Positions 5,282 to 23,647 of a stretch of 24,259 bases of DNA are shown in pieces. Origin of the DNA: an uncultured Pseudomonadales bacterium (GTDB lineage Bacteria > Pseudomonadota > Alphaproteobacteria > UBA2136 > JAPPOO01); contig CAZDNZ010000001.1 of NCBI GenBank assembly GCA_964506925.1, positions 826-25,084 on the forward strand. The letters are read 5' to 3'. The position numbers and the translations under genes were made by a program. The first letter of the stretch is position 1; every line of letters starts with the position of its first letter. Below the pieces are notes generated by a model. That model worked only from the letters and a program-made list of their open reading frames with translations. It searched no databases and was not told the origin of the DNA.

Positions 5282-5697
5282 TATATTATCTCTACGTACA
5301 TGAATCTAATTGTATAACCAATAGCCCAAAAATAATCATTTTCCCAATCTCTACCACCAATTTTCGGCAATATCATCAGGGCGTTACAATCGACATAATC
5401 ATCATCACGGAAACGCCGAGTTCTAACCGTTACATTCCCGCTACGCCCATTTGAGCAATAATCCGTGCTTAGCTTGGAATCTAGGCTATATAACATGGGT
5501 GAAATTCTAAACTCAAAGTAGGCAAATCCTTCATCACGAACTGTCGCGCCAATGGAGATAATTTCTTCACCGTTTTCCCACGTTGAGAGTGTTTGTACTT
5601 CTCCCATTTCATAACCGTCTGTATCGGTAATGGCCTCAAAATCGGTATATCCCGCTTTATTGTTGTGACCTGCCGCTATTCGTATGTTATTGCTCAT
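5281..5697 (-). CDS. Putative distal tail (Dit-like) protein (138 aa)
   Basis: Small beta-rich ORF immediately after the tape measure, coupled on both sides (ATGA and TAATG overlaps). Product assigned by position. Confidence 0.6.
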   Translation of the reverse strand: MSNNIRIAAGHNNKAGYTDFEAITDTDGYEMGEVQTLSTWENGEEIISIGATVRDEGFAYFEFRISPMLYSLDSKLSTDYCSNGRSGNVTVRTRRFRDDDYVDCNALMILPKIGGRDWENDYFWAIGYTIRFMYVEII

Positions 5698-8600: not shown

Positions 8601-8765
8601 GGATAGCTTGATGAGCGACTCGCCAAAATTGCTAGAGGATGTCTGAGATTCTTGAAATGTCTTTTCAAGGGTAATAAACTGGCGTCTAACCTTGCTTACA
8701 GATTGCTCAAGATCAGAAGGGTCTAATGAAATTTTTACCTGAATGTCGTCTGCACTAGGATTCAT
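5694..8765 (-). CDS. Tape measure protein (1023 aa)
   Basis: Long, mostly helical ORF after the chaperone pair, with N- and C-terminal coiled-coil regions, central Ala/Gly-rich hydrophobic stretches and a C-terminal SVSVQNNVNIDG strand typical of tape measures. Confidence 0.92.
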   Translation of the reverse strand: MNPSADDIQVKISLDPSDLEQSVSKVRRQFITLEKTFQESQTSSSNFGESLIKLSDNTMRKMDAQIDRSRIRISKLKSQIEGQQKSMRSAFSSGDTDTGDKIALNIEQKQNQIIQERIALERRLLMQVKKRADAEERNNRLLQRQQSINEGLINLATMVGGSMAVQRGLNTSNELRRLQETTRVMLPTDDEFEQFMVQANQFSQEFNRPIFETIQAFREFLPIVRATSNQTGASMQSVMRQVLLISEQLGTLSPEQGVGGARIALQEFLAGDEESLIRRFELPVTREQLTELFRAGPEAALQGLSQYLGQIGITEDKLKELGETGIRGVEQLQSSFKLLGAVGMAPIEESINDISKDFSNFLNQLIMEEPELIKFIGTIGSLTLGITALTAAMSGAAALGQQRGVAGFFNLFTGNNLGAGMKTFAKMPSVRVGVTGASLAAGTIMGNEIMKFAAQMDIFGDLLSHVDDGLRASVDDLEKLSAGEIKQKFDLKIPTRDIANLINEARENDNLASAVLQLNRIIDKERKESGKKTPLEHTLESLTIILTGLVSVVIALIRDFHLLGHILSNIFLTAVLGVSRFLLEFAKQLVYLANTLGFFIGRQDEFNDAIETLNASIESLDEFNAGRGSFGEGPEGGADDIIDFYNRKIADLATGTADSLGLLGKAGSDTSEDIDEVVSAFDRLKESMDVTDEQVDKLIDAVKKYNEDTESAEDSHLKKLADINEDYAEKQIEIAKRAKEAAEKALQSLKDSRKDAQRDLKRDFAKQERELQDAVLEERQEYLRKEVEDYRKHVDKLKEILEKARQERDKALLEFDFRRIFEIMRDARNNIESEQEDFGIEQEEKVRQRQVELQDMQRDFEIKRRERMIAYREAQQDLKIRYNRELRDSRQAQQRALDDATEYHQKAIRLEHQAYQTRLQVLRDSIEKELELIMMGEEAKEAARLKLLQQARDIMGGSGGSSVSVQNNVNIDGSGLSPEELADAVGRGVQKGNDSVMRIFLSSVSDYNRIPSTWIETHRDLTR

Positions 8766-9125: not shown

Positions 9126-9558
9126 CCGTCTTTTGTTGATGAAAAAAGTCTACAAAGGGTTTGATGCCTTTGCTGCTCCAATCTGATAGGACCGACAAAT
9201 CCTCATCTTCAAGTTCTTCGAGTGCTATTTGTTCGTCGGTTTCCAAGTCTTCGAGATTATTAACAACCTGTGGGTAGATAATCATCTCTTTAGCCAGTAG
9301 TTCAAAGTATTCCCGAACAGCACGCATGTTTTCGCGGTATTCTTGTGGAGTTGTTTTCTTGCCACGAAGAACTTGCGATACATCGACCTCGCTGCTGGCA
9401 AAGTATTTCAGCAGGGTATTCGGAACCTTATCCGAACGCAAAATAGCACTCTGGCTGGCGGGGCGTATGGTAACAGAAAGCCCTGAAGGGAGAACAATGT
9501 CCATTCCCTCTTCATAGGCTTGTTTTCTATAGCTTCTATAGCTACGAACGTCGATCAT
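9100..9558 (-). CDS. Tail assembly chaperone (gpG-like), 152 aa
   Basis: Position after the tail tube gene. Start moved to ATG 9558 (TAATG overlap with the tail tube stop, GGAG upstream). Sequence includes LPSGLSVTIRP and an acidic C-terminal helix. Confidence 0.75.
   Translation of the reverse strand: MIDVRSYRSYRKQAYEEGMDIVLPSGLSVTIRPASQSAILRSDKVPNTLLKYFASSEVDVSQVLRGKKTTPQEYRENMRAVREYFELLAKEMIIYPQVVNNLEDLETDEQIALEELEDEDLSVLSDWSSKGIKPFVDFFHQQKTGDGPLESQ
9141..9148 (-). other. Candidate programmed ribosomal frameshift site C_UUU_UUU_C (+1 or -2)
   Basis: GAC TTT TTT CAT near the end of the gpG-like ORF. The downstream ORF is in the +1 frame, which opens right after a TAG at 9150-9152. The -1 frame closes at a TGA before the downstream ORF. 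Confidence 0.6.
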
Positions 9559-10175
9559 TATACGTCGCTCCAAGCACCACCACTGGTATCAAAATAAGGA
9601 TCAGGGAAGGCGTCTTCGGTCACACTTGTTGCACTCGCATATTCAATTTTGAATATCGGAACGGGACGACTAAGGTTATCAACATAGTTCGAGTTACGGT
9701 ACGCACGAATATTAACCGAGGGCATAATGATGCTATTGTCGCTTATAGACCAAGAGATATTGCCCGAAACCGTGCATACAGGGGCAAATAGGACAACAAC
9801 GCCACCATCTGCGAGGTCTGCTAACATCTTCAGACCAAAATAAGGGAAAATCTTGTTAACTGGTGTACCGAACGTTCTGACTTCGCTTGAGCCAGAACCA
9901 CTAGTGCGGTATGAACCACCCGTTAAAACTGAATAAACAGAACCTTCGTGTGCCGACATAGAAAGGTTAATTTCTGTAAAGTCCAGTTTAGTATACGTAG
10001 CGTACAAGGAACCATCCCCTGGACGGTCGGCACTACGAACGGTTTCTGTGATGTCACCGCCTTGAAATAGAACTTGTACCGCAGTTCCGTATACATTGGT
10101 CGATCTAGTGTAAGGCGCTAGATAACATGCCCTTACATCAAAATCTTCAGCGCCATAAGAAAGGGTTGCAACCAT
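9558..10175 (-). CDS. Major tail (tube) protein (205 aa)
   Basis: Beta-rich ~200-aa ORF between the tail completion gene and the chaperones, with a good GGAG RBS 7 nt before the ATG and its own upstream intergenic promoter motif. Confidence 0.8.
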   Translation of the reverse strand: MVATLSYGAEDFDVRACYLAPYTRSTNVYGTAVQVLFQGGDITETVRSADRPGDGSLYATYTKLDFTEINLSMSAHEGSVYSVLTGGSYRTSGSGSSEVRTFGTPVNKIFPYFGLKMLADLADGGVVVLFAPVCTVSGNISWSISDNSIIMPSVNIRAYRNSNYVDNLSRPVPIFKIEYASATSVTEDAFPDPYFDTSGGAWSDV

Positions 10176-10206
10176 ATTTCGTCTCCATTAGACAAACATA
10201 TCACTG

Positions 10207-10224
10207 ACCCTTATTCTACCATAT
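10207..10224 (-). promoter_or_regulatory. Putative extended -10 promoter (ATATGG-TAGAAT-AAGGGT) for tail genes
   Basis: TGn-TAGAAT in the 68-nt intergenic gap; 17/18 identical to the motif at 13150-13167. Confidence 0.6.
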
Positions 10225-10243
10225 AAAATGACTAAACGTAAAA

Positions 10244-10720
10244 TCAAGTAGGGATATAGTAACCACGAACACGATAAAGCCCTACGATTGTATTAAATCG
10301 TTCGGTCAAACCCTTCATGCTTATGTCGTTTACATATTGTATCTTGTAACCACCAGTTATCTTTTTGTTCTCTAAGGCTGAGTAGACAGCCTGATTTCCG
10401 GTATGTAAAGTACCGAAGCCTACATGTTTGGCGTCATTCATGTGTACTTCGATCAACTGATTTAAGTCGATCCTATTGACAGCGCGTTCAAAACGATCAT
10501 CCAATCTTGTTTTTTGTCTCCCGTAAACGACAATTGTCGGCTGTAAAACCGCGTCCGCATCATAGACCCCATCGGGGGCGTTATCGTAGTTTAAGCCCTC
10601 AAAGCCAATATTAGAGGCCGTTGTTTCGGAATTGTACGCAAATATTCGTGTATCGAAAATATCAGTGACATCGCTATTTGCAAGCAACATGGTCACAACT
10701 TCACCTACGTAATCTCTCAT
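10244..10720 (-). CDS. Putative tail terminator / tail completion protein (158 aa)
   Basis: Directly upstream of the tail tube gene; TGATG overlap with the preceding gene; alpha/beta pattern (PTIVVYG...LIEVHM...). Assigned by position. Confidence 0.6.
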   Translation of the reverse strand: MRDYVGEVVTMLLANSDVTDIFDTRIFAYNSETTASNIGFEGLNYDNAPDGVYDADAVLQPTIVVYGRQKTRLDDRFERAVNRIDLNQLIEVHMNDAKHVGFGTLHTGNQAVYSALENKKITGGYKIQYVNDISMKGLTERFNTIVGLYRVRGYYIPT

Positions 10721-11292: not shown

Positions 11293-11633
11293 TAAATGAC
11301 CTCGCATTTAGCCTGAATAGAAGCAGGAAAGTAATCTACGGATTGAACCTCTAATCGCATATTATTATAAACAAACGTATCGCCAATTTGTATATCGGCA
11401 TCGTCATCAGTCGGATGATTTCTTATGCCGAACAAATCGTATATCTTCTCATAAACGTTTATTTGCGGGGTAGAAGCACGGCTAGGATTCATTACGGTAG
11501 GTACACAAGCAAGCATCTGTGCTGCTTGTTTTACGCCCCCTTTTCGTACCAATACGATGCTTTCGCCGTAACGATCAATTAGATGTTTATGGAAAGTGGC
11601 TAATTTGGCTTTATCTAGTGTTCCTAATGACAT
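11292..11633 (-). CDS. Putative head closure (stopper) protein (113 aa)
   Basis: Size, position and the beta-rich C-terminus DIQIGDTFVYNNMRLEVQSV are typical of stopper proteins. Confidence 0.65.
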   Translation of the reverse strand: MSLGTLDKAKLATFHKHLIDRYGESIVLVRKGGVKQAAQMLACVPTVMNPSRASTPQINVYEKIYDLFGIRNHPTDDDADIQIGDTFVYNNMRLEVQSVDYFPASIQAKCEVI

Positions 11634-12058
11634 CAGGGGACATCTTCTTTACTCTCATCGTCAGTTAAACGACCTGTTCTATCATCTGGCATTTCATATT
11701 CTATAATGGGCCTTCTGCGGGACGCATTGCCTGAACTAATCAGGATACCCACATCTTTATTTATAGAATCAGTTAGTTCTTTTTCTGCCTGTTTTATGAG
11801 TCGTTCTATGTTCCCCAAGCGTTGAGATAGCTTTTCCGATATATCGCCCATTTTTACATCCACGTCTGAGTAAAATTCAGCAGACTTGTTGAGCCAGTAT
11901 TCGTGAACAATCCAGGCAGATATCGTGCGATTACTTTTCCCCGGTAGTTCCCCCGTACCCTCATCCCACAAATCATCTATTTCTTGATCGGTAAGGGTAG
12001 TGACTGTCGTATTTGTCTTGCGTCTTATCCTCGTGACATATAAGCTAGGCGCTGGCAT
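11633..12058 (-). CDS. Putative head-tail adaptor protein (141 aa)
   Basis: Helical protein (RIRRKT...LTDQEIDDLW...DVKMGDISEKLSQ) in the first connector position after the capsid region. Confidence 0.6.
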   Translation of the reverse strand: MPAPSLYVTRIRRKTNTTVTTLTDQEIDDLWDEGTGELPGKSNRTISAWIVHEYWLNKSAEFYSDVDVKMGDISEKLSQRLGNIERLIKQAEKELTDSINKDVGILISSGNASRRRPIIEYEMPDDRTGRLTDDESKEDVP

Positions 12059-13115
12059 CTACTATCCCTTTATAAATATCCATTACTCGTGAAGAGAAAA
12101 AATCCCATCTGTAGTTTTTACGAACCCATTCTGCCTTTTCGTATCTGTTTTCAGCACTCATGTCCCAAGTTTCATATACCCATTTCAGAGTATCTGCGGC
12201 TGACGCGACATCTATCTTTGCCCATTGATCTTCGGGGTCCACAAGTGTGCCTCTCATCATGTGATTTTCGTACCAAGCGGGTTCGAGTTCTGTTACTGCA
12301 ACAGGGTATCCCCAAGAGCGAATATCGTCAGCAGTTCCACCCCAATCCAGAGAAATAGCCGCGCCCCCTGTTGCCGCAAACTCTCTGGGAGGAAGTCCAA
12401 AACCTTCCCTTCCTAAATACAACATAGCGTGACAAGAATGATAAAGGTCCTTCATTTGCGAATTGCTGTAATCTTCTGCTATCAATGTGATATTTTCGTC
12501 TTTTGGCAGGGCAGTATATTCTATGACATCACCCGCATCGTCTTTTATAGAAAAAAGGTTCCCTTTCGCTCTGGTCTTTAAAACAACTTCTATATCGGGA
12601 TTATTTTGTCCAAATACAGTCCCTATTGTCATTAAAGACTCGAACCAGCCACGCCTACCACCTCTATCTAAAATAACCAATATCCTAAATGGCTTGTCAT
12701 TAGGTCTTGTTCTATATTCTTTATAGATTTCGTCTATACCCAACGGGACACTGTAAATAGGGGTGCTTACTCCATTATCTTCAAACCATTGCTTCGGTTC
12801 TGATGCGCTTACTACAACAGCAGCAGAACTATTCAGAGGTTCGACCCATCCTTCGGGTAATTTTGTGCTTTCATAGGTTGTGATCCACATTCTAGGACCA
12901 GCGTATTTATTCAACGGGTATTCGTTATACTGAGTGGGATAACCCATAAGAATACCCCCTATAGACGGGACGTAAGGTGTCGCGTAATCCATGTCATTAC
13001 TGAGCAGGTTTACATGTAAGCCCTGCTTACGCATGTGATCTGCTACATGAAACGACCAGATTCCATAGCTATCATTCAGGTCTTGATTGGGGGTTAGTAT
13101 GCTGACTACTTCCAT
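12045..13115 (-). CDS. GT4-family (GT-B) glycosyltransferase, 356 aa
   Basis: Contains YESTKLPEGW, an intact E-x7-E motif (EGFGLPPRE) followed by ATGGAAISLDWGG, and no transmembrane helix. Start taken as ATG 13115; the track start is TTG 13136. Confidence 0.88.
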   Translation of the reverse strand: MEVVSILTPNQDLNDSYGIWSFHVADHMRKQGLHVNLLSNDMDYATPYVPSIGGILMGYPTQYNEYPLNKYAGPRMWITTYESTKLPEGWVEPLNSSAAVVVSASEPKQWFEDNGVSTPIYSVPLGIDEIYKEYRTRPNDKPFRILVILDRGGRRGWFESLMTIGTVFGQNNPDIEVVLKTRAKGNLFSIKDDAGDVIEYTALPKDENITLIAEDYSNSQMKDLYHSCHAMLYLGREGFGLPPREFAATGGAAISLDWGGTADDIRSWGYPVAVTELEPAWYENHMMRGTLVDPEDQWAKIDVASAADTLKWVYETWDMSAENRYEKAEWVRKNYRWDFFSSRVMDIYKGIVDASA

Positions 13116-13124
13116 TTTATATCC

Positions 13125-13155
13125 AAACACAAACAAGGGTACATTTAGTACCCTT
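13125..13155 (-). terminator. Putative intrinsic terminator downstream of the major capsid gene
   Basis: Perfect 8-bp stem AAGGGTAC-TAAAT-GTACCCTT followed by T-rich GTTTGTGTTT on the minus strand, about 26 nt after the capsid stop. The U-tract is imperfect. Confidence 0.55.
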
Positions 13156-13167
13156 ATTCTAGCATAT
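13150..13167 (-). promoter_or_regulatory. Putative extended -10 promoter (ATATGC-TAGAAT-AAGGGT) upstream of the GT4 and connector genes
   Basis: TGn-TAGAAT in an intergenic gap; 17/18 identical to 10207-10224. Confidence 0.6.
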
Positions 13168-13181
13168 TTGTATAGTGGTTT

Positions 13182-14390
13182 CTAAGTCAGACTTGGGAGT
13201 GTGATCTCTTGTACAGAGCGTGTGGTATCAGTGTAAACACCGAACTCGGTTGTGTAGGCTTGTGTCAAAGCAATTCTGCGACGAACATCTGAATTTTCAT
13301 CTTCCTTCATCTGCATCTCTACGCGGATGAAGCATTGTAGGTCAACGTCACGATTACCCGTATGAATCAGGTAAGCAGTACCTTGCGAAACACCCGTATA
13401 TGTGGTTGTTTCGTTGTTCATCGTACCTTGCCAACCATCATAGGCGACAATTTGCGAGACGTTGAATGGGGAAAGCTTATTCACAAGCTGAACGTCATAG
13501 CCCTCTTGCGGAACTGGCCGTGCAATCGCGTTAACGATATTGGCGTAATCAGCCATTGAGCATAGCAGTACATATGGACCTCTGCGCGGATTCACATCGT
13601 CGTTGATACTATCCTGAATGCCCTGATAGATAGTGGATGCGATTTTCTCTTGATTGGTAGCGCCTGTCGAAACAGCACTCGTGGCATTGTTGCCCGTATA
13701 CGACGCGCTGATAATCGGATCGAAATGCTTATCGTTCATCAAAGCATTATGGGCCTTACCTACTTCGCGGACAATAGGACCCATTTCCCAGGCACGATTG
13801 CTACGCATCATCTTTTCAGTAAGGATCACCGAAACACCGTAGTCACGAATGCGGATTGTATGTTGACGTTCTTTTATATCAATCGTCGGGATGGATTCGG
13901 TATCTACAATTTGTTCCCATACAACACCGACATTGCCGCGAACATTTACCGTAATGACATCTTCCAGGTTAGGGTCACGAACCATGTTATAAACGCCATC
14001 GAAAAGGATGGGATTTTCGTCACGTCCCGCATCCAAGTAGAACATGCGTTGTTTACGGAAGTCTGCCAAAAATTGCCCTGTGCTAATTGCGCCACTGGCG
14101 GCTTCGGTTAGATTCTTTACGCGATTTTCGTCAACAATCGCGTATTTTTCCCCACCCACCCGTTCGATCTTGAATACTTCGTAAAAACCTTTCGGGACAA
14201 TGGGATTGGGAATACGACCAGCTTCATATGCGTCGATGAAATGCCGCATGTTGCTTTCCCACAAAGCACGTGTTTGCGGATTTCTAGCCGCAATGCCTTG
14301 TGGACCCATGTTATATTCTGCTTCGGCCCTCGCCAGTTTGCGACGAACCTTTTGGTCATATAGCGTCTGTGAAGTTACTAAGCGTGTCAT
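13182..14390 (-). CDS. Major capsid protein (HK97 fold, Mu gpT-like), 402 aa
   Basis: Position after cement and protease. Contains LTEA...STGQF near the N-terminus and HTIRIRDYGVSVILTEKMMRSN...IVREVGKAHNALMND, matching the typical YG...TxEMIxND pattern, plus a C-terminal TTEFGVY strand. Confidence 0.88.
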   Translation of the reverse strand: MTRLVTSQTLYDQKVRRKLARAEAEYNMGPQGIAARNPQTRALWESNMRHFIDAYEAGRIPNPIVPKGFYEVFKIERVGGEKYAIVDENRVKNLTEAASGAISTGQFLADFRKQRMFYLDAGRDENPILFDGVYNMVRDPNLEDVITVNVRGNVGVVWEQIVDTESIPTIDIKERQHTIRIRDYGVSVILTEKMMRSNRAWEMGPIVREVGKAHNALMNDKHFDPIISASYTGNNATSAVSTGATNQEKIASTIYQGIQDSINDDVNPRRGPYVLLCSMADYANIVNAIARPVPQEGYDVQLVNKLSPFNVSQIVAYDGWQGTMNNETTTYTGVSQGTAYLIHTGNRDVDLQCFIRVEMQMKEDENSDVRRRIALTQAYTTEFGVYTDTTRSVQEITLPSLT

Positions 14391-14786
14391 TTATGCACCA
14401 CCTGTCGGATTCAAGAAACCTTCAACAAAGTTAGAGGCATCTTTTGTAGCTGTCACTTTCAATAGTGGGTAGTTTGTCGATGCGGTAAGCGTATAAGCAG
14501 CGTCGGGGGGGACATGAGCGCTTGTTATTGCAGACAAGTCTAAATAAAGAACCTGCCCGATAGCGGGATCAAGCGAAGCGGGAATCTGCAATCTCACCAA
14601 ACCAGCGTTCATATTCAGCGAAACTTGTTCGCCGCTATCGCCGCTTCTAGTTGGAATGCCTACCAAAGCATAGCTTGTACCACCGATGCTTGCCAAGCGA
14701 CTAGGATCAACGCTATATTCCAGGCTTACGCTGTTTTCGACTGCAAATTCCTGGGGTTTCTTTACGAATACTGTTCCTACAGCCAT
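14391..14786 (-). CDS. Capsid cement / decoration protein (beta-tulip, DUF2190-like), 131 aa
   Basis: Small Gly/Ala-rich beta protein between protease and capsid genes: LVGIPTRSGDSGEQVSL...IGQVLYLD. Confidence 0.75.
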   Translation of the reverse strand: MAVGTVFVKKPQEFAVENSVSLEYSVDPSRLASIGGTSYALVGIPTRSGDSGEQVSLNMNAGLVRLQIPASLDPAIGQVLYLDLSAITSAHVPPDAAYTLTASTNYPLLKVTATKDASNFVEGFLNPTGGA

Positions 14787-14795
14787 TAGGTTCTC

Positions 14796-16169
14796 CTATG
14801 CTAAAAATATAAGCGAAGATTCGGCAAAGTCTGTTTCTTCCTCGGAAGTTTCAGCTTGCTTTTCTTCTAGCGTCTTGTTTTCGCTGACGACTGGTGGACC
14901 AACCGATTGAGCAAGCGCAATCTTAATTAGGCGCTGACCGAAGTCCGACTCTTTTACGGTGTTCCATGCGTTTTCGACTTCTAGGCGTGTTGTCGGTTCA
15001 TGCGTCCAAACGCTAGAAACCAACACGTTAGCAATTTCTTCGCTGCCTTCGGGAAGGCTCCCACTTACCGTCGATAGCACATTCGATTCGAGAAGTTCTT
15101 TATTTTCATCAGCCATCGAACGTACTTCTATTTGCAATCCCTGAACGTGACTAGCCAGTTTAGAACTATCGTCAATACCAAGCATGTCCATAACAACATT
15201 GACTCTTTTATTGAGCGTGTTGTATTTTTCTTGTATTTGTTCTAGTTCCAGAACGCGCTTTTCCATTTCAAGGATGTCTTGTGTCTTTTCTACATTTTCT
15301 GACATCTTCTTATCCTCGTATTTTTTAGATTTAGCTTCTTGATCTACGACATTGAATGCTTCATGAGGATTGACGGATTCGGCACGGTGCCCTACCAGGG
15401 TATCTGTTCTCTGGAAACCGCCTTCTGTTTTTCTGTACACGCGGATGAGTAATGCTGGATTATCATCGTCCGCGTTTAGGGTTACATCCGCGTCGGGAAC
15501 ATTTAACGTACCTGACCTAACAATACGTTCGATTCTCCCGTATGCTGTACCACCAGAACTTCCCCATTGCACATCTCTGCCGACTCTCATCTGATCTTTC
15601 GACAAAGCCTCTGTTATATGTGGTACAACCGCCATTGTTGGTATTCCGGCTAGGGATGGTTCAACCATGTCGATTCTCTCTACCTTTAAGTTTCGGACTC
15701 GGTTTTCCTCATCTATTGTGCCTCGACCCAATATGGAAGTTGCAATCTTACCATTTAACGCCTTAGCTGTAGCGCACGACGCTCGTATCGCTTTAGCATG
15801 AGGGTAAATGTACGCTACTCCGAATAATTCACCCGTGTTTTCGTCTAATTCTACGTTCAGCCACCGCATGACTGTTTCCTGATAACCACTGACTCTGTTA
15901 TCTGAAGGATGACCCGCAGCCCCTTCAACCCGATCCATGATCGCATCACGAATCGCTATAACACTATCCATCTCATAAATCCGGTTATTATGAGAGTAGC
16001 TACCAGCTTCCGCAACTTTCAGGTGAATAAACATCGGAGACGAATCGTTTAATGTCTTGCGAACATATTCCCGAAAACCCTCTGGAATAGGAACTTCTCT
16101 AAACGCAGATTGCGTCATAGAGGTACTCATCTCAATGATTATTTGATCTTGGGAAATATCGCTATCCAT
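14796..16169 (-). CDS. Prohead protease / scaffold fusion with an inserted Tudor/SH3-like domain (457 aa)
   Basis: Protease motifs SHNNRIY, AGHP (His), TSILGRG (Ser) and IDMVEPS (Asp), followed by an SH3-like block and a coiled-coil/helical scaffold region. Start placed at ATG 16169 (GGAG 6 nt upstream); the track start 16211 adds an AT-rich, non-protein-like leader. Confidence 0.85.
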   Translation of the reverse strand: MDSDISQDQIIIEMSTSMTQSAFREVPIPEGFREYVRKTLNDSSPMFIHLKVAEAGSYSHNNRIYEMDSVIAIRDAIMDRVEGAAGHPSDNRVSGYQETVMRWLNVELDENTGELFGVAYIYPHAKAIRASCATAKALNGKIATSILGRGTIDEENRVRNLKVERIDMVEPSLAGIPTMAVVPHITEALSKDQMRVGRDVQWGSSGGTAYGRIERIVRSGTLNVPDADVTLNADDDNPALLIRVYRKTEGGFQRTDTLVGHRAESVNPHEAFNVVDQEAKSKKYEDKKMSENVEKTQDILEMEKRVLELEQIQEKYNTLNKRVNVVMDMLGIDDSSKLASHVQGLQIEVRSMADENKELLESNVLSTVSGSLPEGSEEIANVLVSSVWTHEPTTRLEVENAWNTVKESDFGQRLIKIALAQSVGPPVVSENKTLEEKQAETSEEETDFAESSLIFLA

Positions 16170-16316
16170 TAAACGCTCCGATTGGACCTTATATATAATA
16201 TATACTATCATAGAAACCTTCTTTTTTGCAAATTGACCCTTGTTTTGCCAACTTTGATGGTTACAATAGCGCCAGAATGTTGACCACCATTGCAGTCTCT
16301 TTCGAGGCTTCTATGG

Positions 16317-16356
16317 ATTTCGACCCGTTCTGTATTGTTATAGAATGGGTCGAAAT
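16317..16356. repeat. 18-bp inverted repeat / hairpin in the divergent intergenic region
   Basis: ATTTCGACCCGTTCTGTA-TTGT-TATAGAATGGGTCGAAAT: 16 Watson-Crick pairs plus 2 G:T pairs on the + strand. Confidence 0.85.
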
Positions 16357-16399
16357 GCGATTAGTCTGCCTGTAACATATTAAAGACAGGGAATGATAT

Positions 16400-16951
16400 A
16401 TGGTAAACAAACAAAATACAAACTTCCAGCACGCTAATTTGTACAAAAAGGACATGCGAGGATGGAATCTAAAAGGTTGCGATATGACAGGTGCCTTTTT
16501 GATATATGCCAATCTGATGTATGCAGACCTAACGGGTGCAAACCTAAAAGAGGCTAGCTTTTACAATGCTAATCTGACAAATGCTAATTTGCAAAAGGTC
16601 AAGCTACAAAGGGCATACATGGGACACGCAAACCTAACAAACGCCGACTTAACGGGTGCAAACCTGACTCATGCTTTTTTGCAAAAGACCATCCTGACGG
16701 GCGCTGACCTGACGACTGCTAATCTGCAAAACACTAAGATGTTCGGCGCTAAGCTAAGAGGTGCAAACCTAACAAGCGCCAATCTAAAAGACGTAGACTT
16801 GTTTGGGGCTAATCTATCGGGTGCAAACCTGACAAACGCAAAGATGCAAAATACAGACATGTCGTTCGCAGACCTGAGAGGGGCCATCCTGACAGGTGTG
16901 AATTTAGAGGGCCTCATTCTGCACGGGGCAAAAATGCCTGACGATGAATAG
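16400..16951 (+). CDS. Pentapeptide-repeat protein (183 aa)
   Basis: Nearly the whole protein is A(D/N)LxX pentapeptide repeats (ANLYK, ADLTG, ANLKE, ANLTN...). AGGGA RBS-like sequence upstream. Confidence 0.95.
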   Translation: MVNKQNTNFQHANLYKKDMRGWNLKGCDMTGAFLIYANLMYADLTGANLKEASFYNANLTNANLQKVKLQRAYMGHANLTNADLTGANLTHAFLQKTILTGADLTTANLQNTKMFGAKLRGANLTSANLKDVDLFGANLSGANLTNAKMQNTDMSFADLRGAILTGVNLEGLILHGAKMPDDE

Positions 16952-16978
16952 TAAGATATTAGTGAGGAATAAGCAATC

Positions 16979-17344
16979 GTGAATGATATAGACACAGGGC
17001 AATTCAAAACAATTTTGGAAATTGATAGAGATTTTGACTATGATGTGTACAGCACGACATATATAGGCAGGGATTATCGTTTCCGCGCCCTATGGGTACG
17101 TCATACGGACATTCTCTCAATGCGTTATGGTTACTATGGGGACCCCTGCTCACAACATGAGAACCTTAAGGTAACAACCAGTGAAAGGATACATGGTCGT
17201 ACACACCCGATGTTTGGCTCATATCCAACCTTGAAACAAGCATTGATGTATAGCTGTCGGAGTATGCGTGAAAAATACCGACACGCGGTAAATGTACACA
17301 AAGAGATGTGTGAGTCCGAAGCCTACGGCGAGATATTGGGGTAA
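16979..17344 (+). CDS. Hypothetical protein (121 aa), co-oriented with the pentapeptide gene
   Basis: GTG start with GAGGA about 10 nt upstream; fills an otherwise empty gap; protein-like composition. Confidence 0.7.
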   Translation: MNDIDTGQFKTILEIDRDFDYDVYSTTYIGRDYRFRALWVRHTDILSMRYGYYGDPCSQHENLKVTTSERIHGRTHPMFGSYPTLKQALMYSCRSMREKYRHAVNVHKEMCESEAYGEILG

Positions 17345-17391
17345 ATACCAGACAATTCTTGAAAAGCACCTAGAACTAATTGACTGAAAAA

Positions 17392-17589
17392 TTAGTCGTC
17401 CCAATCGAAGTCTATCTCAGATATAAACTCTATATCTTCGGCTTCGAACATGATTTCTACTAATTTTGAAAATTCAAAACCGCACCTATCGCACACCCAT
17501 GCGGTAGGTATGATCCTATCGCCAAAGTTAAGCCATTCTGTTTCACGCGGGGTATTTCTTTTGCAACGAGGACATTCTTTAGTTTTCAT
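17392..17589 (-). CDS. Small zinc-ribbon protein (65 aa)
   Basis: CPRC...CDRC motif with an acidic C-terminus; TGATG overlap with the upstream gene. Confidence 0.75.
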   Translation of the reverse strand: MKTKECPRCKRNTPRETEWLNFGDRIIPTAWVCDRCGFEFSKLVEIMFEAEDIEFISEIDFDWDD

Positions 17590-17969
17590 CAGCTAATAAT
17601 CACCCTTATTCTGAGCTTTTTGCTATCGCCACCCTGGGCTACTGTAATTTGCAAATTTTCACCTGCCATCGGATAAAGCATCGTGGCATCTGCGGATGTT
17701 TCGCCTACTTTATAGGTGTCGATTGTTATGGCACGGCTTGTATCACTGTTGCTATTTGTTATAGTCTGAAGCGTTTCTTCCAATGTTTCTTTCAGACCTG
17801 TAGACGGGTTTTTAATCGAAGCGATGGATTTTATAGTTATATCTGTGCCAGAATCAGTATCAACATGTTCTATGGTAATTCGCGCCAACCAGCCGAACAC
17901 TTCGTTTACCGTAAATGTAGCATTGCCGCTAGCGTCTGTTGTCAGAACCTCACTATAATGTTGCATCAT
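17589..17969 (-). CDS. Hypothetical Thr/Ser-rich all-beta protein (126 aa), possibly virion structural
   Basis: ATGA-coupled to the double GT4 gene; alternating beta-strand pattern (LARITIEH, TDITIKS, NLQITVAQG, LRIRVIIS). Confidence 0.7.
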   Translation of the reverse strand: MMQHYSEVLTTDASGNATFTVNEVFGWLARITIEHVDTDSGTDITIKSIASIKNPSTGLKETLEETLQTITNSNSDTSRAITIDTYKVGETSADATMLYPMAGENLQITVAQGGDSKKLRIRVIIS

Positions 17970-20149
17970 TTCCCCTTAATATCCTCTATAAAGTCGATAT
18001 ACTGTTTTATCTCTTCACCTATTGAGAATCTTTTATCTATATCTTCTCTCGCAAACTTGCCCATAGATTCTCTTAGTGGTTTATCTTCGATTAGTTTGAT
18101 TATAGCACGAGCAACACTATTGGCGTTTTGTTCTACTACATAACCAGATTGCCCGTCTTTTACGACATGGGCATTGCCTCTGTTTTTCGTCACAACTGCT
18201 GGTATTTGATCTAGCATCCTTTCCCGAAGTCCCAAACAATACGCCTCGGTATTAGAGGTATTGACGTTAATATCCCAAATCCTTAGCAGTGGGTGGTATT
18301 GAGAAACGCTACCCATGAGTACAAAATATTCGCTTGCGTTTTTACTCTTTATAATACCCTTTAACTGCTTTGCGTAATTCGAGGTATCATCACCCGCGAC
18401 ATAGAAAACGACATCGGGGTATTTGCGATGTACTATTTCCGCAGCTTCCAAAAACAAATAGGTATTTTTTACAGGTCGAATATTACCTACTGTACCGACA
18501 AGTATTTTATCTTGGGGTATTCCCAATTCATCACGCAATTTGACCTTATTCGGCAATGAGGGCGTTTCGGTTCCGGTATGTATAACGCAAGTCGGTATGC
18601 CATATCTGGAAAATTGTTGAGATATGTAGTCAGCACTACCGATAAAGTAATCGGATTTCTGCAAACCCCTGAGTGACCTTCCTATCAACTTGCTGATTTC
18701 ACTACCCTGAAAGCTGACCACTTTATACTTATCTACCCTCAAATCCGCAATAAAGTCGCGACCCATAGACATAAGTGCGAATATAATATCGGGGTTGAAA
18801 GTATCTATTGCCTCTTGAACATCACGCACTCTTGTTTTCATCTGAGTAAAAATATTGTTCTTTCTTAAGGTATCCAATCCCCTTTCATTCCCCTCTACAT
18901 CTTGCAATACAATAGCTTGACAGTTATAGCCCAGTTCTGATAATCGAATCAATCTTCTTATCCAAGTTAACTCCGTACCGCCGACCTGGACAGAAGGGAA
19001 TAGAACAGTTATCTTTGTTTCCAAAACTGTAGAGAATAAGTTTTCCCATTCCTGATCCGATTGTTCGTTGCTGGTAAAATTAGGCAAATATTTATCCCTC
19101 AGATACAAGTTGCGATGCCAATCACGTTTGTTGATTATTTCATTGAGATTTTTTAAAAGGTGTTCGTTACCTAATTGGGTTATCGTAGTCATAGAAGGGG
19201 ATTTTTGTTTTATAATCCGATGTGGGTGAATATCGCTTAGTAGTTGAGGTATACCAAAAAATAGCGTTTCTAGCACAGCGTTAGGGAAGCCCTCGTGAAA
19301 CGACAATAAAATATGCAAGTCCAGTATCGACAATAGTGGTGATAGATGCCCTATTTCCCCCTGAAATTCTACATTTGGGGATGTAGTTATTTCTGCCAAA
19401 AAGCGATTGTAGTAGTCTCCTTCACCTAGTGTTTCACCCCAAAATATAAATTTTACATTGGGATGTGTTTTTTCTATACTCCTGGCGAAATGGATAATCT
19501 CAATCTGTCTCTTGCTAGACCTGATGTGAGCGTAGCAACCGATGACAAAATCCTCATCGCTAAAACCCATCTGCTCTCGGAATATGCGCCTTGTCTCTTT
19601 TAAGAGATTATAATCGGGAGGTGTCGGTCCCCCTTGCTCTATAACTCTAAAGACGCTTTTATCTATATTCGGGAATCTCGAAAATGTATCCAGTGCTCTC
19701 TGACTGTTACTCACAATTGCGTAGGCATAAGCATGGGCATGAGAGACAAACTTTTTGTTTTCTTCATTGGCGTTTGCAAAATCATGTTGTACTTCGCCTC
19801 CGTGATATACGATGAGTGGGGTACTTGTCTTTTGTGCCGCATAAGATGTGAAATAAGCCGAGTTCCATGACCTTGCAATTACAATATCGGGTTTGTAGTC
19901 CGCTATTTTCTTCTGTATTCTACTTATTAAATCGAATGCGGTTGCCATGTGATAATCACGTGGCTTCTCATTCCATACCTCGTAACCAGAAACATTCGGT
20001 ATATTTTCTATATACTTGAGAGTATTATCGTGCAGTTGACTCGTGACTAAAACATAAAAGTCATGATGTGACATCCTTCGCATTCGATTGAGCCATTGAA
20101 AAGACGCACCACCAGACATCATATTTTCAGAAACTAGCATGATCTTCAT
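17966..20149 (-). CDS. Tandem double GT4-family glycosyltransferase (727 aa)
   Basis: Two complete GT-B units: N-unit MKIMLV...GGA...RSSKRQ...EGFPNAVLE, and C-unit KITVLF...VGGTE...RPVKN...EAYCLGLRE...VVKDGQSGYVV. Both E-x7-E motifs are intact. Confidence 0.92.
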   Translation of the reverse strand: MKIMLVSENMMSGGASFQWLNRMRRMSHHDFYVLVTSQLHDNTLKYIENIPNVSGYEVWNEKPRDYHMATAFDLISRIQKKIADYKPDIVIARSWNSAYFTSYAAQKTSTPLIVYHGGEVQHDFANANEENKKFVSHAHAYAYAIVSNSQRALDTFSRFPNIDKSVFRVIEQGGPTPPDYNLLKETRRIFREQMGFSDEDFVIGCYAHIRSSKRQIEIIHFARSIEKTHPNVKFIFWGETLGEGDYYNRFLAEITTSPNVEFQGEIGHLSPLLSILDLHILLSFHEGFPNAVLETLFFGIPQLLSDIHPHRIIKQKSPSMTTITQLGNEHLLKNLNEIINKRDWHRNLYLRDKYLPNFTSNEQSDQEWENLFSTVLETKITVLFPSVQVGGTELTWIRRLIRLSELGYNCQAIVLQDVEGNERGLDTLRKNNIFTQMKTRVRDVQEAIDTFNPDIIFALMSMGRDFIADLRVDKYKVVSFQGSEISKLIGRSLRGLQKSDYFIGSADYISQQFSRYGIPTCVIHTGTETPSLPNKVKLRDELGIPQDKILVGTVGNIRPVKNTYLFLEAAEIVHRKYPDVVFYVAGDDTSNYAKQLKGIIKSKNASEYFVLMGSVSQYHPLLRIWDINVNTSNTEAYCLGLRERMLDQIPAVVTKNRGNAHVVKDGQSGYVVEQNANSVARAIIKLIEDKPLRESMGKFAREDIDKRFSIGEEIKQYIDFIEDIKGK

Positions 20150-20196: not shown

Positions 20197-22044
20197 TTAT
20201 AACTTTATCTCGTCTTTCATCTCGCCATATGCTATTAAAAACGCCTCTTTTAGCTGCGGATTCTTACTCATCATCTGACGATAAATCGAGTTGACACGGC
20301 TTTTCGCAGCATCGCCACCCCATCCCATCCAAGCTACCCATGCCCGTTCTCTGTCTTTAAAATTAGGGCTGTTTTTAGATGTTGATGTATGACGGGCAAA
20401 CCAAGCACGCATTGTAATAACATCGTTCGGGCTTAAAGTCCCGCCTTTTGCTAGCTGTCTGGCACGTCTCATTCCTGTAGAAGTCATGCCTCTTTTAGAA
20501 CGGGGCAGTTCCTTATTTCTTTCAATTGCGCGTTTGGCATTGTTTGACATATCTTTGGTGATTGAAAAATCAATACCGTCATACATACCTTCGCTTATTT
20601 TATTCTCTATGGTAGGCAATTCACTAGCTGTATCACCCGACCTACCATTTCCTTCTAAATTAGGGTTGGGTTTTGTGACAATTTCAGATTGTGCCTTTTT
20701 GAATATCTCTTCGGGATCACTGATGCTTGGGTCTAGTTCTCTAGCGACCTTCAGGGCGGTAACACCATCTAAAATACCATAACGCAACAACATTCCCAAT
20801 TGCTGCAATCTTATCTTGCCGTTATCGGGGATAAGAGGAGGCCATACCAGATCAAAACTCTGAAGCTTTATTCCGCTATCATAGATCGCCATGTATTCCA
20901 TAACAATCCTGACAATCCTGCTTATCCAGCTTTTAGCCTCTAATCTTTGCTTTTCGCCCCATAATACAAAAGCTCTCATTTGTTCACTAGCGGTTCTGTC
21001 ACTGGACGACACGCTTATACCAAAGGCAAACTCAGGTATTTCTGTTGCGATAATCAATTCTCTATGTGTTAGATCAATAACCCTCTGAGTTTCTTCTACA
21101 AATGGACTTGGGGAGACCATATCCATTTCGGCATCACCAGCCAGAATCGTAATTTGTCCCGCGTGCCAATCGTATTCTTGGTATTCGACGCTGCTCCCGT
21201 CTTTTAGTTGTACGCTCCGCGTCGTTCCAAATCTTGTCAAAAAGTTATCTATTTCTTCAGCAGTGCCCATTTTTCGGAATACGGGGGTAGGTATAGCCAT
21301 GTTTCTGTGACCCACGAACGTATTCGTGTACGTCTCTTGTTTTTGCCTTAAAAGTGCCAGCATAGGTTCGGCATCTGATCTGCCGAATAGAGAATTACTA
21401 TCCCTATTCGCCGCTATATGTACGAACGGCATTTGTTGCGTGGCGTAAGGGTATCTTTCCCTATATTTCTTAGTGCTGTATTTTCGATAGCGAACCCGAC
21501 TTAGAAACTCGTCTGTTATTGTCTGTTGGTCAAATCCTGTATGCGAACGATACGTTATATGAACCTGCCAACCATCAATCTTAGAAAAATCATTCTTATT
21601 CGTCAACGGATGAACTACATCAGGCTGTATCGGGTGTATATTAGGATATTCTTCCTTATAACCAGGAGGGGAAATATGAGCGTACATATCACCTAATCTA
21701 CCAGCGAACTCCGATAAGTGGCCTATTTTATCGGCATTTAATTTCAACCATTCGGATAATCTCTCGCTGGTATATTGATCGTCGCATTCCACACGCGGGG
21801 TTATATTTGTAACAATAGCTCTCTTTTTGCTGGTTACGCTTTTCGGCAAAGGCCATACATAGCTGTACCCGTTCGCAACCCCTGAATATAACCTAGAGTA
21901 AAAAGCATAATCCGTTCTTCCAGGGTCTATGCTTACAGAACCCCAATCCGTATAAGCACTGAATTTGATAGAACGGTTTGTATCCAAAACCTCAGATACA
22001 GGCTTTGTTTTCTTTTTAAGGGGCTTTTTGTTTAGACTGGGCAT
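20197..22044 (-). CDS. Portal protein with a C-terminal fused accessory domain (615 aa)
   Basis: Position after TerL. Portal-like features include GRLGDMY, NSLFGRSDAEPML and IATEIPEFAFG. The extra ~130 aa carry an RxWFARH...AWMGWGGD motif. Confidence 0.85.
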   Translation of the reverse strand: MPSLNKKPLKKKTKPVSEVLDTNRSIKFSAYTDWGSVSIDPGRTDYAFYSRLYSGVANGYSYVWPLPKSVTSKKRAIVTNITPRVECDDQYTSERLSEWLKLNADKIGHLSEFAGRLGDMYAHISPPGYKEEYPNIHPIQPDVVHPLTNKNDFSKIDGWQVHITYRSHTGFDQQTITDEFLSRVRYRKYSTKKYRERYPYATQQMPFVHIAANRDSNSLFGRSDAEPMLALLRQKQETYTNTFVGHRNMAIPTPVFRKMGTAEEIDNFLTRFGTTRSVQLKDGSSVEYQEYDWHAGQITILAGDAEMDMVSPSPFVEETQRVIDLTHRELIIATEIPEFAFGISVSSSDRTASEQMRAFVLWGEKQRLEAKSWISRIVRIVMEYMAIYDSGIKLQSFDLVWPPLIPDNGKIRLQQLGMLLRYGILDGVTALKVARELDPSISDPEEIFKKAQSEIVTKPNPNLEGNGRSGDTASELPTIENKISEGMYDGIDFSITKDMSNNAKRAIERNKELPRSKRGMTSTGMRRARQLAKGGTLSPNDVITMRAWFARHTSTSKNSPNFKDRERAWVAWMGWGGDAAKSRVNSIYRQMMSKNPQLKEAFLIAYGEMKDEIKL

Positions 22045-22045
22045 A

Positions 22046-23647
22046 CTACCACTTGGTCCTTAACTGTATAATCTTTCGCTCCGAAGTAAGCTTTTTGTTT
22101 TTAAACATAAGATGGATGCACCCCCATACCAACGCATCGAGTATATCAGGCGATTTTCCTTTTCCGACATACGTGGTAAGTTGATCTTCTAGTCTAGGCA
22201 GAACACCCACATGATGAGCGCGACCTTGTTCATACAACATAGATGGTCTTTCAGCGCGAGTCGTTTTCCTTTGAGACGCGCTAACATCATGCACCCTGGG
22301 TATTTCGTCTAAAAATTCACGAGCAGAGTCCATAATAACTTTTATTGCCATATCGCCGCCTTGATTCGTCTCTACAACTATAGAATCGGCAGCGTGATCC
22401 TTGTATGCTTGAATAACCATCTGTCCCCACTTGGCAGGTGATCCGCGAACCGAATAATCCTCAATGACGTAAAAATGGTTATCCGATCCCCTTGCTGAAA
22501 CAATGATACCACACTCAGACGTTTCGTAATCCCTCACTGGTGGATCGACGCTTACTACAAGCTCTTCGATGGGGACGTTTATCTTTGACACACGTCCTTT
22601 TTCAATATCAGAGAGTTTCCATAAAGCCCCAGGGATTTCACTTAAAAGTTCCCCATAGATTTCTTGCCTGCCGACTGTTGTATCCGAATAAATATCTAAT
22701 ACGTTGTCTGCCCAATCTTTATCTAGGTTCCTAATATTGTCTAAAGTGGAACCTTTTGTGACAACTGTTTTGGGGTCCTCAATAACTTTACGAATTATTT
22801 CCCCTGGTCTAGGGGTTGTTGTCCATATACGATGGGGATATATGTACTTTCCATCATTGGCAAAATATTGCAGACGATTTCCGAGAACAGCCTGCGTATA
22901 AGTCAAAGTTGCGAATTTCCAAGCTGCCAACTCGTCGCCCCATAAAATAGTAGATTCAGGTCCTCTGAGTGAATCGGGTTTTTCGGCAGAATACATGAGG
23001 GCTATTGCCCCTGTACTTAGCCACTCCACACGGCTTTTAGAGGGATAATAAACAGCAGGGTTCCAGGGTGGCGAACAAGTTACAACGCCAGATTCGCCCA
23101 ATACCATTGTGTCTCTAGCGTCTTTAGCAGTTCGAGCAATAAGTGACATTCTAAGAGGGTTGCTTTTTCTACTACGCATGGCTTGCGAATTTATATACTC
23201 AGCACCCGTCTTGGTTTTCCCGAAACCGCGACCAGCCATAAGCAACCATGCTTTCCATTTTCCTTTGGGTGGGAGTTGTTCAGGTCGTGCGAATATGTTC
23301 CAGTTATATAATAATAGTTCTATTTCTTCAGCGCTGAATTTATCAATCATATCCGGTGTTACACGTTCTATGACTGATCGGGAACCACCCCCTGAACTTA
23401 TATCTCTTTTCAGATCACTTAAGGTTTTCTTTTTTCCTGGTCTGTTTTCGAGGCTAGGTTCCTGAACCTTTTCATCCAGTGAATCTAAATAATCATCGAG
23501 TGCCTTGTCTAAGTCTTTTCTATTGTCAGCCTGAATGATTAGTTTCTCTCTGAAATTACCATCTTCTTTTAGGTCCTCATATACAAATACGCCCCAATCA
23601 TCACCGACTTTCTTAACTGTATATTCTTCAAGAATGGGTTTCGGCAT
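22046..23647 (-). CDS. terL: Terminase large subunit (533 aa)
   Basis: FARPEQLPP, Walker A AGRGFGKT, Walker B LWGDE, coupling motif TTTPR, and nuclease motifs VSVDPP, ETNQGGD and SPDILDALVW. Confidence 0.96.
   Translation of the reverse strand: MPKPILEEYTVKKVGDDWGVFVYEDLKEDGNFREKLIIQADNRKDLDKALDDYLDSLDEKVQEPSLENRPGKKKTLSDLKRDISSGGGSRSVIERVTPDMIDKFSAEEIELLLYNWNIFARPEQLPPKGKWKAWLLMAGRGFGKTKTGAEYINSQAMRSRKSNPLRMSLIARTAKDARDTMVLGESGVVTCSPPWNPAVYYPSKSRVEWLSTGAIALMYSAEKPDSLRGPESTILWGDELAAWKFATLTYTQAVLGNRLQYFANDGKYIYPHRIWTTTPRPGEIIRKVIEDPKTVVTKGSTLDNIRNLDKDWADNVLDIYSDTTVGRQEIYGELLSEIPGALWKLSDIEKGRVSKINVPIEELVVSVDPPVRDYETSECGIIVSARGSDNHFYVIEDYSVRGSPAKWGQMVIQAYKDHAADSIVVETNQGGDMAIKVIMDSAREFLDEIPRVHDVSASQRKTTRAERPSMLYEQGRAHHVGVLPRLEDQLTTYVGKGKSPDILDALVWGCIHLMFKNKKLTSERKIIQLRTKW

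Follow-up and report, generated by a model that had tools for sequence, protein, structure and literature searches.

Why would a tailed bacteriophage carry two glycosyltransferase (GT) genes among the genes that build its head? We address this question for a stretch of 24,259 nucleotides (hereafter the window; bases 826-25084 of contig CAZDNZ010000001.1), which encodes a 727-residue double GT behind the portal gene and a 356-residue GT behind the gene for the major capsid protein (MCP). The explanation that we favour, with confidence somewhat above even, is glycosylation within the head module, in which the GT4-like enzyme encoded beside the capsid gene would have a head protein as its substrate, and the glycan would be extended by a variable island behind the portal gene. 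A sugar coat on the particles of these phages is probable. A preliminary description of this DNA had placed the double GT after the portal, and the smaller GT between the capsid gene and a head-tail adaptor gene that it overlaps; both reading frames were found as described. The genes on which the argument turns are:

20197-22044, minus strand: portal protein (SPP1_portal match), upstream border of the island, with portal homologs in relatives
17966-20149, minus strand: 727-residue predicted tandem GT4-GT4 (Pfam, model and Foldseek), in the variable post-portal slot
14796-16211, minus strand: 471-residue head maturation protein, protease/scaffold-like (Hva1_TUDOR match), downstream border of the island
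14391-14786, minus strand: 131-residue cement/decoration-like protein (weak Pfam Phage_cement_2 match)
13182-14390, minus strand: MCP, HK97-like (Pfam Phage_capsid_4, phrog_3116)
12045-13115, minus strand: 356-residue GT-B protein, GT4-like, ATG at 13115 (phrog_2170, model and synteny)
11633-12058, minus strand: 141-residue head-tail adaptor-sized protein, overlapping the 356-residue GT gene by 14 nucleotides (nt)

The two glycosyltransferases

The double GT gene starts 47 nt past the portal gene. Its product matched Pfam Glycos_transf_1 over two stretches (9.1e-41; 139.7 bits against a cut-off of 26.4) and Glyco_transf_4 at residues 14-172. The AlphaFold2 model (pLDDT 87) contains two full two-Rossmann GT-B modules, residues 1-375 and 379-727, and superposes on the retaining GT4 enzymes HepE, BshA, PglA and MshA (TM-score up to 0.84 by target length), with TarM also found by Foldseek. 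An alignment with 42 comparably long tandem GT4 fusions shows that G14, K213, E286 and E294 are kept in module 1, and G391, K561, E635 and E643 in module 2. K331, E403 and E411 of TarM align to K561, E635 and E643. As modelled, the protein is two complete GT4-type GT-B modules, for which activity is predicted. It is a sequence orphan: the best match among 1.84 billion representatives scored 137 bits and covered the C-terminal Rossmann domain only, and this status holds in word-indexed and exhaustive searches alike.

For the 356-residue protein there was no Pfam or NCBIfam match above threshold; it matches phrog_2170, annotated as 'glycosyltransferase', at 5e-21. Its model (pLDDT 90.9, pTM 0.90) has a GT-B fold. 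The best match in the Protein Data Bank (PDB) was a chlorovirus NY-2A GT (3oy2, 14% identity), followed by MshA, BshA, PimA and PglA, and matches in BFVD were mostly viral GTs. Foldseek matches of the two GT models included MshA, BshA, PimA, PglA and HepE, with a probability of 1.00. The bacterial retaining GT4s (BshA, MshA, PimA, PglA, HepE and TarM) have the GT-B fold, the E-x7-E motif and the Lys/Arg diphosphate binders in common with the window GTs, which match none of them at equivalog level. NCBIfam returned only sub-threshold GT4 matches, mostly to exopolysaccharide (EPS) or lipopolysaccharide (LPS) families, and no equivalog-level match giving sugar or acceptor specificity. The GT4 assignment of the preliminary description thus stands by profile for the 727-residue protein, while for the 356-residue protein we use the label on the grounds of predicted fold and motifs, not of a Pfam- or CAZy-type model match.

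All three E-x7-E motifs had been described as intact, and each proved to be at least 90% conserved in family alignments (E286-E294 and E635-E643 in the 727-residue protein, E237-E245 in the 356-residue protein). Moreover, G18, E82, R154, K180, E237 and E245 are invariant in 48 homologs of the 356-residue GT at a mean identity of about 36%. Invariance of catalytic residues over so many diverged homologs points to a working enzyme and not a structural relic, as expected of an active GT4-type enzyme; the diphosphate-binding roles of the Lys/Arg residues and the role of the Gly-loop are putative, being assigned by homology only. More than 100 homologous metagenomic clusters (31-42% identity, full length) were found, and many homologs match the Pfam GT1 models (PF00534/PF13692). 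A catalytically dead GT-B fold, recruited to assist assembly or as a minor structural component, would fit a core gene of the head module that lacks a Pfam GT match. However, the invariant E-x7-E, Lys/Arg and Gly-loop residues and the Pfam GT1 matches of many homologs make such a role scarcely credible.

Neither GT has a transmembrane-like segment (KD19 maxima of 1.51 and 0.66), in agreement with the earlier reading of both as free of membrane anchors. The 356-residue GT carries a net charge of -18, unlike membrane-surface GT4s. Its stop codon overlaps the adaptor-sized gene by 14 nt, an overlap that recurs in relatives, and the adaptor-sized gene is probably translationally coupled to it.

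Gene order in relatives of the capsid

We surveyed gene order around relatives of the capsid protein alone, to avoid selecting on the GT. The best 80 of 214 capsid relatives in IMG/VR were joined by 58 from JGI metagenomes and by matches in genomes, and after de-duplication 91 loci could be assessed downstream of the MCP. The survey concerns the 356-residue GT, the double GT4 being an orphan. Relatives were reached through alignment-based scans only: neither megablast nor tblastn, run on 50,697 phage records, nor a single-protein scan of IMG/VR gave anything close to the window.

In 65 of the 91 loci the GT starts no more than 450 nt from the MCP stop codon, and in another 15 it lies 0.8-2.6 kb downstream. 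A GT was not seen within 6 kb of the MCP in 11. The GT is capsid-linked in about 80 of the 91 loci (~88%). Among the displaced cases, seven have one or two genes inserted between the MCP and the GT, the insertion in locus L035 consisting of a sugar C-methyltransferase and a GT2-methyltransferase fusion; the other eight form a sub-lineage with a divergent GT after the connector genes. One of the 11 apparent absences has a GT after all, 9.4 kb downstream (9423-10418 in the 47.8-kb IMG/VR record behind L047), with one in-frame TGA that could reflect a pseudogene, a sequencing error or recoding. Four of the 11, from the most distant capsid clade, showed no GT on fragments of 27-40 kb.

Six long metagenomic contigs and ten genomic loci all share the order protease/scaffold, cement, MCP, GT, connectors, tail tube and tape measure (16/16), and the proteins in this order are all homologous to those of the window. 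Relatives are 31-39% identical to the window in the GT and 26-38% in the MCP; a GT as diverged as the capsid is expected for co-inheritance. As judged from gene order, the 356-residue GT belongs to the syntenic core of the head module in most relatives.

The stretch from portal to protease/scaffold gene, where the double GT4 lies in the window, is variable and rich in sugar enzymes in relatives. A protein of ~379 residues usually follows the portal (38 loci), and one member has a weak Phage_Mu_F match. The island of L012 encodes a 399-residue GT4, an ATP-grasp protein, an NDP-sugar epimerase/dehydratase and a DegT aminotransferase, and that of L010 a formyltransferase, a GT4 and DegT. An epimerase lies upstream of the portal in L007. 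GT2-like proteins with SAM methyltransferases, some of them rhamnosyl-O-methyltransferase-like, occur in L013, L022 and L050, a Glyco_hydro_cc protein in L018 and a GDSL esterase in L058. A sugar C-methyltransferase is also found among the sugar enzymes of the relatives' head modules. The 399-residue GT4s gave no blastp match to the double GT4.

Pfam and PHROG scans of the window found no flippase or NDP-sugar gene, and the GtrA flippase, the bactoprenol GT GtrB and membrane GtrC had no Pfam match in the window or in the relatives' loci examined. The preliminary description noted no flippase or nucleotide-sugar genes nearby and proposed that the sugars come from host NDP-sugars, which holds for the window. 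What it says of nucleotide-sugar genes and of host sugars does not extend to the lineage, since relatives encode NDP-sugar and other sugar-modifying enzymes of their own.

A positional parallel is found in mycobacteriophage Corndog, where a methyltransferase (gp35) and GTs (gp36-38) occupy the stretch from portal gp34 to capsid gp41, the same slot as that of the double GT4. In Che8, the cassette gp108-110 is at the right end of the genome, unlike the window. Both phages resemble the window in encoding soluble GTs, often with sugar methyltransferases, but neither has a GT fixed directly after the capsid gene, as this lineage does. Che8 gp108-110 and Corndog gp35-38 gave BLASTP E-values > 1 against the window proteins, and the single marginal match to these enzymes was the GT2 of relative L022 (E 0.003). 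The virion glycosylation reports for mycobacteriophages reportedly stem from Freeman et al. 2023 (Cell Host Microbe 31:1216). Later papers report glycosylation by phage GTs for the virions of Che8, Corndog and Myrna (PMC12363180, PMC11256854), with the glycans on capsid and tail-tube proteins (PMC12363180, PMC11256854, PMC13313380). Phage-encoded virion glycosylation has been demonstrated for no more than a few mycobacteriophages, in which it reportedly protects the particles against antibodies (PMC12363180, PMC11256854).

The only cultured phages with homologs of the 356-residue GT are ~130-kb Streptomyces phages (Stanwilliamsviridae/cluster BE) and Rhodococcus cluster CB phages. These homologs are annotated GTs of GT4 type, at 20-28% identity and up to 96% coverage, and their authors suspect that they may glycosylate virions (PMC13313380). 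Faust gp18-19 and StarPlatinum gp43 open a rightward late operon, ahead of ribonucleotide reductase, endolysin and portal genes, and are not beside the capsid gene. The tandem homologs gp18 and gp19 of Faust (L005, 4632-7926) lie directly beside three tRNA-Thr genes, and a tRNA-Thr gene is nearby in StarPlatinum; this may be a coincidence or a hint of Thr-rich acceptors. Cytoplasmic GTs of chloroviruses and giant viruses, sometimes with their own rare-sugar pathways, decorate the major capsid protein; the PBCV-1 system has been reviewed (PMC9614988, PMC5408694). The likeness of the NY-2A GT to the 356-residue GT is at the level of the fold only, and those viruses infect eukaryotes and have an unrelated capsid fold.

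Candidate acceptors and competing roles

We infer that the acceptor is a virion protein, and likewise infer its identity and residue, the sequence of transfers and the kinds of sugar involved. The window covers the structural half of a siphovirus genome, whose head module would hold a two-part glycosylation system. In the first part, the soluble acidic 356-residue GT would transfer the initial sugar of the glycan from an NDP-sugar donor to a head protein, of which the capsid is the most likely, in the cytoplasm late in infection. The second part would be the island bounded by the portal (or MuF-like) gene on one side and the protease/scaffold gene on the other. Here the tandem GT4-GT4 would add two further sugars from host NDP-sugars, while the islands of relatives, with other GTs and enzymes predicted to make or decorate unusual sugars, would lead to virion glycan coats that differ between related phages.

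GT4 enzymes can use protein Ser/Thr acceptors, as does GtfA, the O-GlcNAc transferase of the accessory Sec system. By position only, the MCP is the most likely acceptor. The preliminary description had named four candidates: a Ser/Thr-rich loop of the capsid, the C-terminus of the tail tube, the cement protein and the 126-residue protein encoded behind the double GT. None of them was supported. In the capsid loop, Y231 and T237 are invariant in a 14-sequence alignment. T237 lies in an N-(Q/K/A/L)-T motif (N-A-T in the window) followed by a variable S/T/G/A stretch; in the wider survey T237 has a few exceptions. The C-terminus of the tail tube is neither conserved nor rich in Ser/Thr in relatives, and the 126-residue protein has no blastp match in the 16 loci compared, no Pfam or PHROG match and only viral hypothetical clusters in the Atlas. 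Cement homologs occur upstream of the MCP in all loci examined, with weak Phage_cement_2 matches in relatives too. The cement-like protein is an alternative candidate acceptor, and no conserved Ser/Thr feature was found in it.

The C-terminal tail of the capsid offers another candidate. It ends in ...ITLP-SLT in the window, and a short Ser/Thr tail (PTS, PS, PSLT or PTSGA) follows ...EEITLP in 55 of the 69 loci that carry the GT and in 3 of the 11 that lack it. These counts hold too few independent contrasts for us to retain the tail as the acceptor. A more specific proposal, which we regard as possible but doubtful, is that the GT4 following the capsid gene is a dedicated capsid GT priming a fixed site, while the post-portal island is swappable and sets the rest of the glycan. 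The candidate primed sites would then be the Ser/Thr tail after ...EEITLP or the loop with the invariant Thr237.

Several points weigh against head-module glycosylation as a whole. The case for it consists wholly of gene position and enzyme class, and GT4s that lack anchors often act on lipid-linked or small-molecule acceptors. The tandem GT4 architecture is common, and its nearest example lies in a cellular Wzy/exosortase polysaccharide cluster. The Che8 and Corndog enzymes are of GT-A type (GT2, GT25) with TylF-like methyltransferases, in contrast to the GT4/GT-B enzymes of the window. The N-x-T motif of the capsid loop is equally conserved where the GT is missing, being kept in 10 of the 11 loci without a GT within 6 kb, and the capsid tree shows only about four changes in GT presence, leaving 2-4 independent contrasts, so that the correlation with the C-terminal tail has no phylogenetic power. 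A predicted complex of the MCP with the 356-residue GT scored 0.00, which speaks neither for nor against binding. Finally, since the window spans no more than the structural half of the genome, DNA-modification genes could lie elsewhere.

That last point bears on a role in which the GTs glycosylate phage DNA, producing hypermodified bases before or during packaging. GT-B enzymes are found among phage DNA GTs, the double GT adjoins the packaging genes, and two papers document that a variety of viral GTs glycosylate DNA (10.1101/2023.12.21.572611, PMC13326640). However, the window and the relatives' flanks examined contain no hydroxymethylase, TET/JBP-type or DNA-kinase genes, and the linkage of the conserved GT is with capsid and adaptor genes rather than with replication genes. 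The structural matches are to GT4 enzymes and not to the T4 alpha/beta-GT families, and the C-methyl, amino and formyl sugar enzymes and O-methyltransferases of relatives were not found beside DNA-metabolism genes. We consider DNA a very unlikely substrate.

Late action on the host envelope is a further alternative, with glycans or lipid-linked precursors of cell-wall polysaccharide, S-layer glycan or EPS as the acceptors; it could mask receptors and spare the loss of progeny on debris or infected cells. The lack of a membrane anchor, noted in the preliminary description, is a weak argument against envelope enzymes, since GT4s typically build polysaccharides on lipid carriers without such anchors, and the polysaccharide cluster holding the nearest tandem fusion and the EPS or LPS character of most sub-threshold NCBIfam matches point the same way. 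Many relatives are also prophages. Against this, no flippase, polymerase or membrane GT was found in the window or the loci examined, and the 356-residue GT is strongly acidic. Conversion genes usually occur as morons close to the attachment or immunity region, rather than as core genes set between capsid and connectors as in ~88% of relatives, and rare-sugar pathways inside a head operon better fit a virion product. We judge an envelope substrate improbable.

Modification of a small molecule or a host protein, for counter-defence or metabolic takeover, by GTs that hitch-hike in the late operon seems to us a little less plausible still. The structural relatives BshA, MshA and SenB use small-molecule acceptors. 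In addition, the Pfam 'GT4-conflict' model matches P0001 and many homologs weakly, and gp18 and gp19 of Faust exceed its cut-off. Hitch-hiking would leave unexplained why the position between capsid and adaptor genes has stayed fixed while the GT diverged as deeply as the capsid, and why multi-enzyme sugar pathways accompany it in the same module. Taken together, the synteny survey, the island content and the Corndog slot strengthen the original proposal, which is partly supported, of a virion-linked system over O-antigen conversion or DNA modification.

Surroundings of the head module, host and significance

All credible genes of the window are on the minus strand, except for one small inverted cassette. 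The head-to-tail order is terminase, portal, 727-residue GT, 126-residue protein, inverted two-gene cassette, protease/scaffold, cement, MCP, 356-residue GT and adaptor. After the adaptor-sized gene come more connector genes, the tail tube, chaperones, the tape measure and distal tail genes. The remaining features are:

22046-23647, minus strand: large terminase
17589-17969, minus strand: 126-residue protein rich in Ser/Thr (25%), from the list of open reading frames; its start overlaps the double GT stop by 4 nt
16979-17344, plus strand: 121-residue protein that matches nothing
16400-16951, plus strand: pentapeptide-repeat protein of 183 residues (Pfam Pentapeptide, 2e-61), repeats throughout
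13116-13181, minus strand: intergenic gap between MCP and GT genes, with a TGcTAGAAT box, a hairpin and a T-rich run, as read from the sequence
9558-10175, minus strand: tail tube protein (phrog_4971)
5694-8765, minus strand: tape measure

The plus-strand genes at 16400-17344, the only ones in the window, interrupt the head operon, and this pentapeptide-repeat cassette could be a DNA-mimic or anti-defence moron. In the gap between the MCP and GT genes, the extended -10-like TGcTAGAAT box is followed by a hairpin (AAGGGTAC/GTACCCTT) and then the T-rich run. A TAGAATAAGGGT box is common to the gaps before the GT/connector genes (13140-13170, minus strand) and before the tail-tube gene (10205-10225, minus strand). 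The boxes and the hairpin could be putative late promoters, or an attenuator after the capsid gene.

At its C-terminus, the portal carries an additional domain (20197-20586, residues ~494-587) that matches phrog_2859 (7.8e-07) and not portal families; most relatives have in its stead the separate gene for the ~379-residue protein behind the portal. The Hva1_TUDOR-like domain of the protease/scaffold-like protein spans residues 211-257 (E 1.9e-06), and the homologs of this protein in relatives have 350-607 residues. Just left of the window, the contig has a 10-N scaffold gap at bases 816-825. An Anaerolineae prophage on a 573-kb contig (L011/L013) carries an IS605-family TnpB (OrfB_IS605 / Cas12f-like TNB; 13340-14479) in its tail-gene region, where several opposite-strand genes are also inserted.

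The 25-kb contig is the longest in a bin of 165 contigs and 1.09 Mb. It holds phage structural genes and the small inverted cassette, with no cellular genes, and has a GC content of 42.8%, where the bin averages 50.4% (SD 3.2). Among species-representative genomes with matches, 9 of 12 are metagenome-assembled genomes (MAGs) of Chloroflexota (Anaerolineae, Aggregatilineales, Ardenticatenia and Litorilinea), and two of the Chloroflexota matches are on contigs of 573 and 675 kb, which indicates prophages. The capsid family was found in 0 of 300 genomes sampled from the phylum of the MAG itself. Given this result, the GC offset and the Chloroflexota relatives, we do not trust the bin as the host, and the contig is probably mis-binned. 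The lineage is large and uncultivated, and most of its copies in genomes are prophages, carried by Chloroflexota (Anaerolineae-type) MAGs.

A GT4/GT-B enzyme is thus fixed beside the capsid gene across a large environmental lineage, together with an island of varying sugar-pathway content. Relative to the mycobacteriophage systems, the enzyme class, the fixed capsid-side position and the host range are different, and the function proposed from these genes would be the same. The mycobacteriophage hosts are Actinobacteria, in contrast to the mostly Chloroflexota genomic matches of the present lineage. If a dedicated capsid GT does prime a fixed site and a swappable island sets the rest of the glycan, the homologous capsids of related Chloroflexota phages would bear different 'glycan serotypes'. 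Phage virion glycosylation would then have gained a new enzyme class, in the first system of this kind outside phages that infect Actinobacteria. More broadly, if head-module glycosylation is the right reading, sugar-coated phage particles would be widespread outside Actinobacteria, with glycans that diversify quickly. This would bear on phage stability and adsorption, on recognition by hosts and grazers, and on engineered phage coats.

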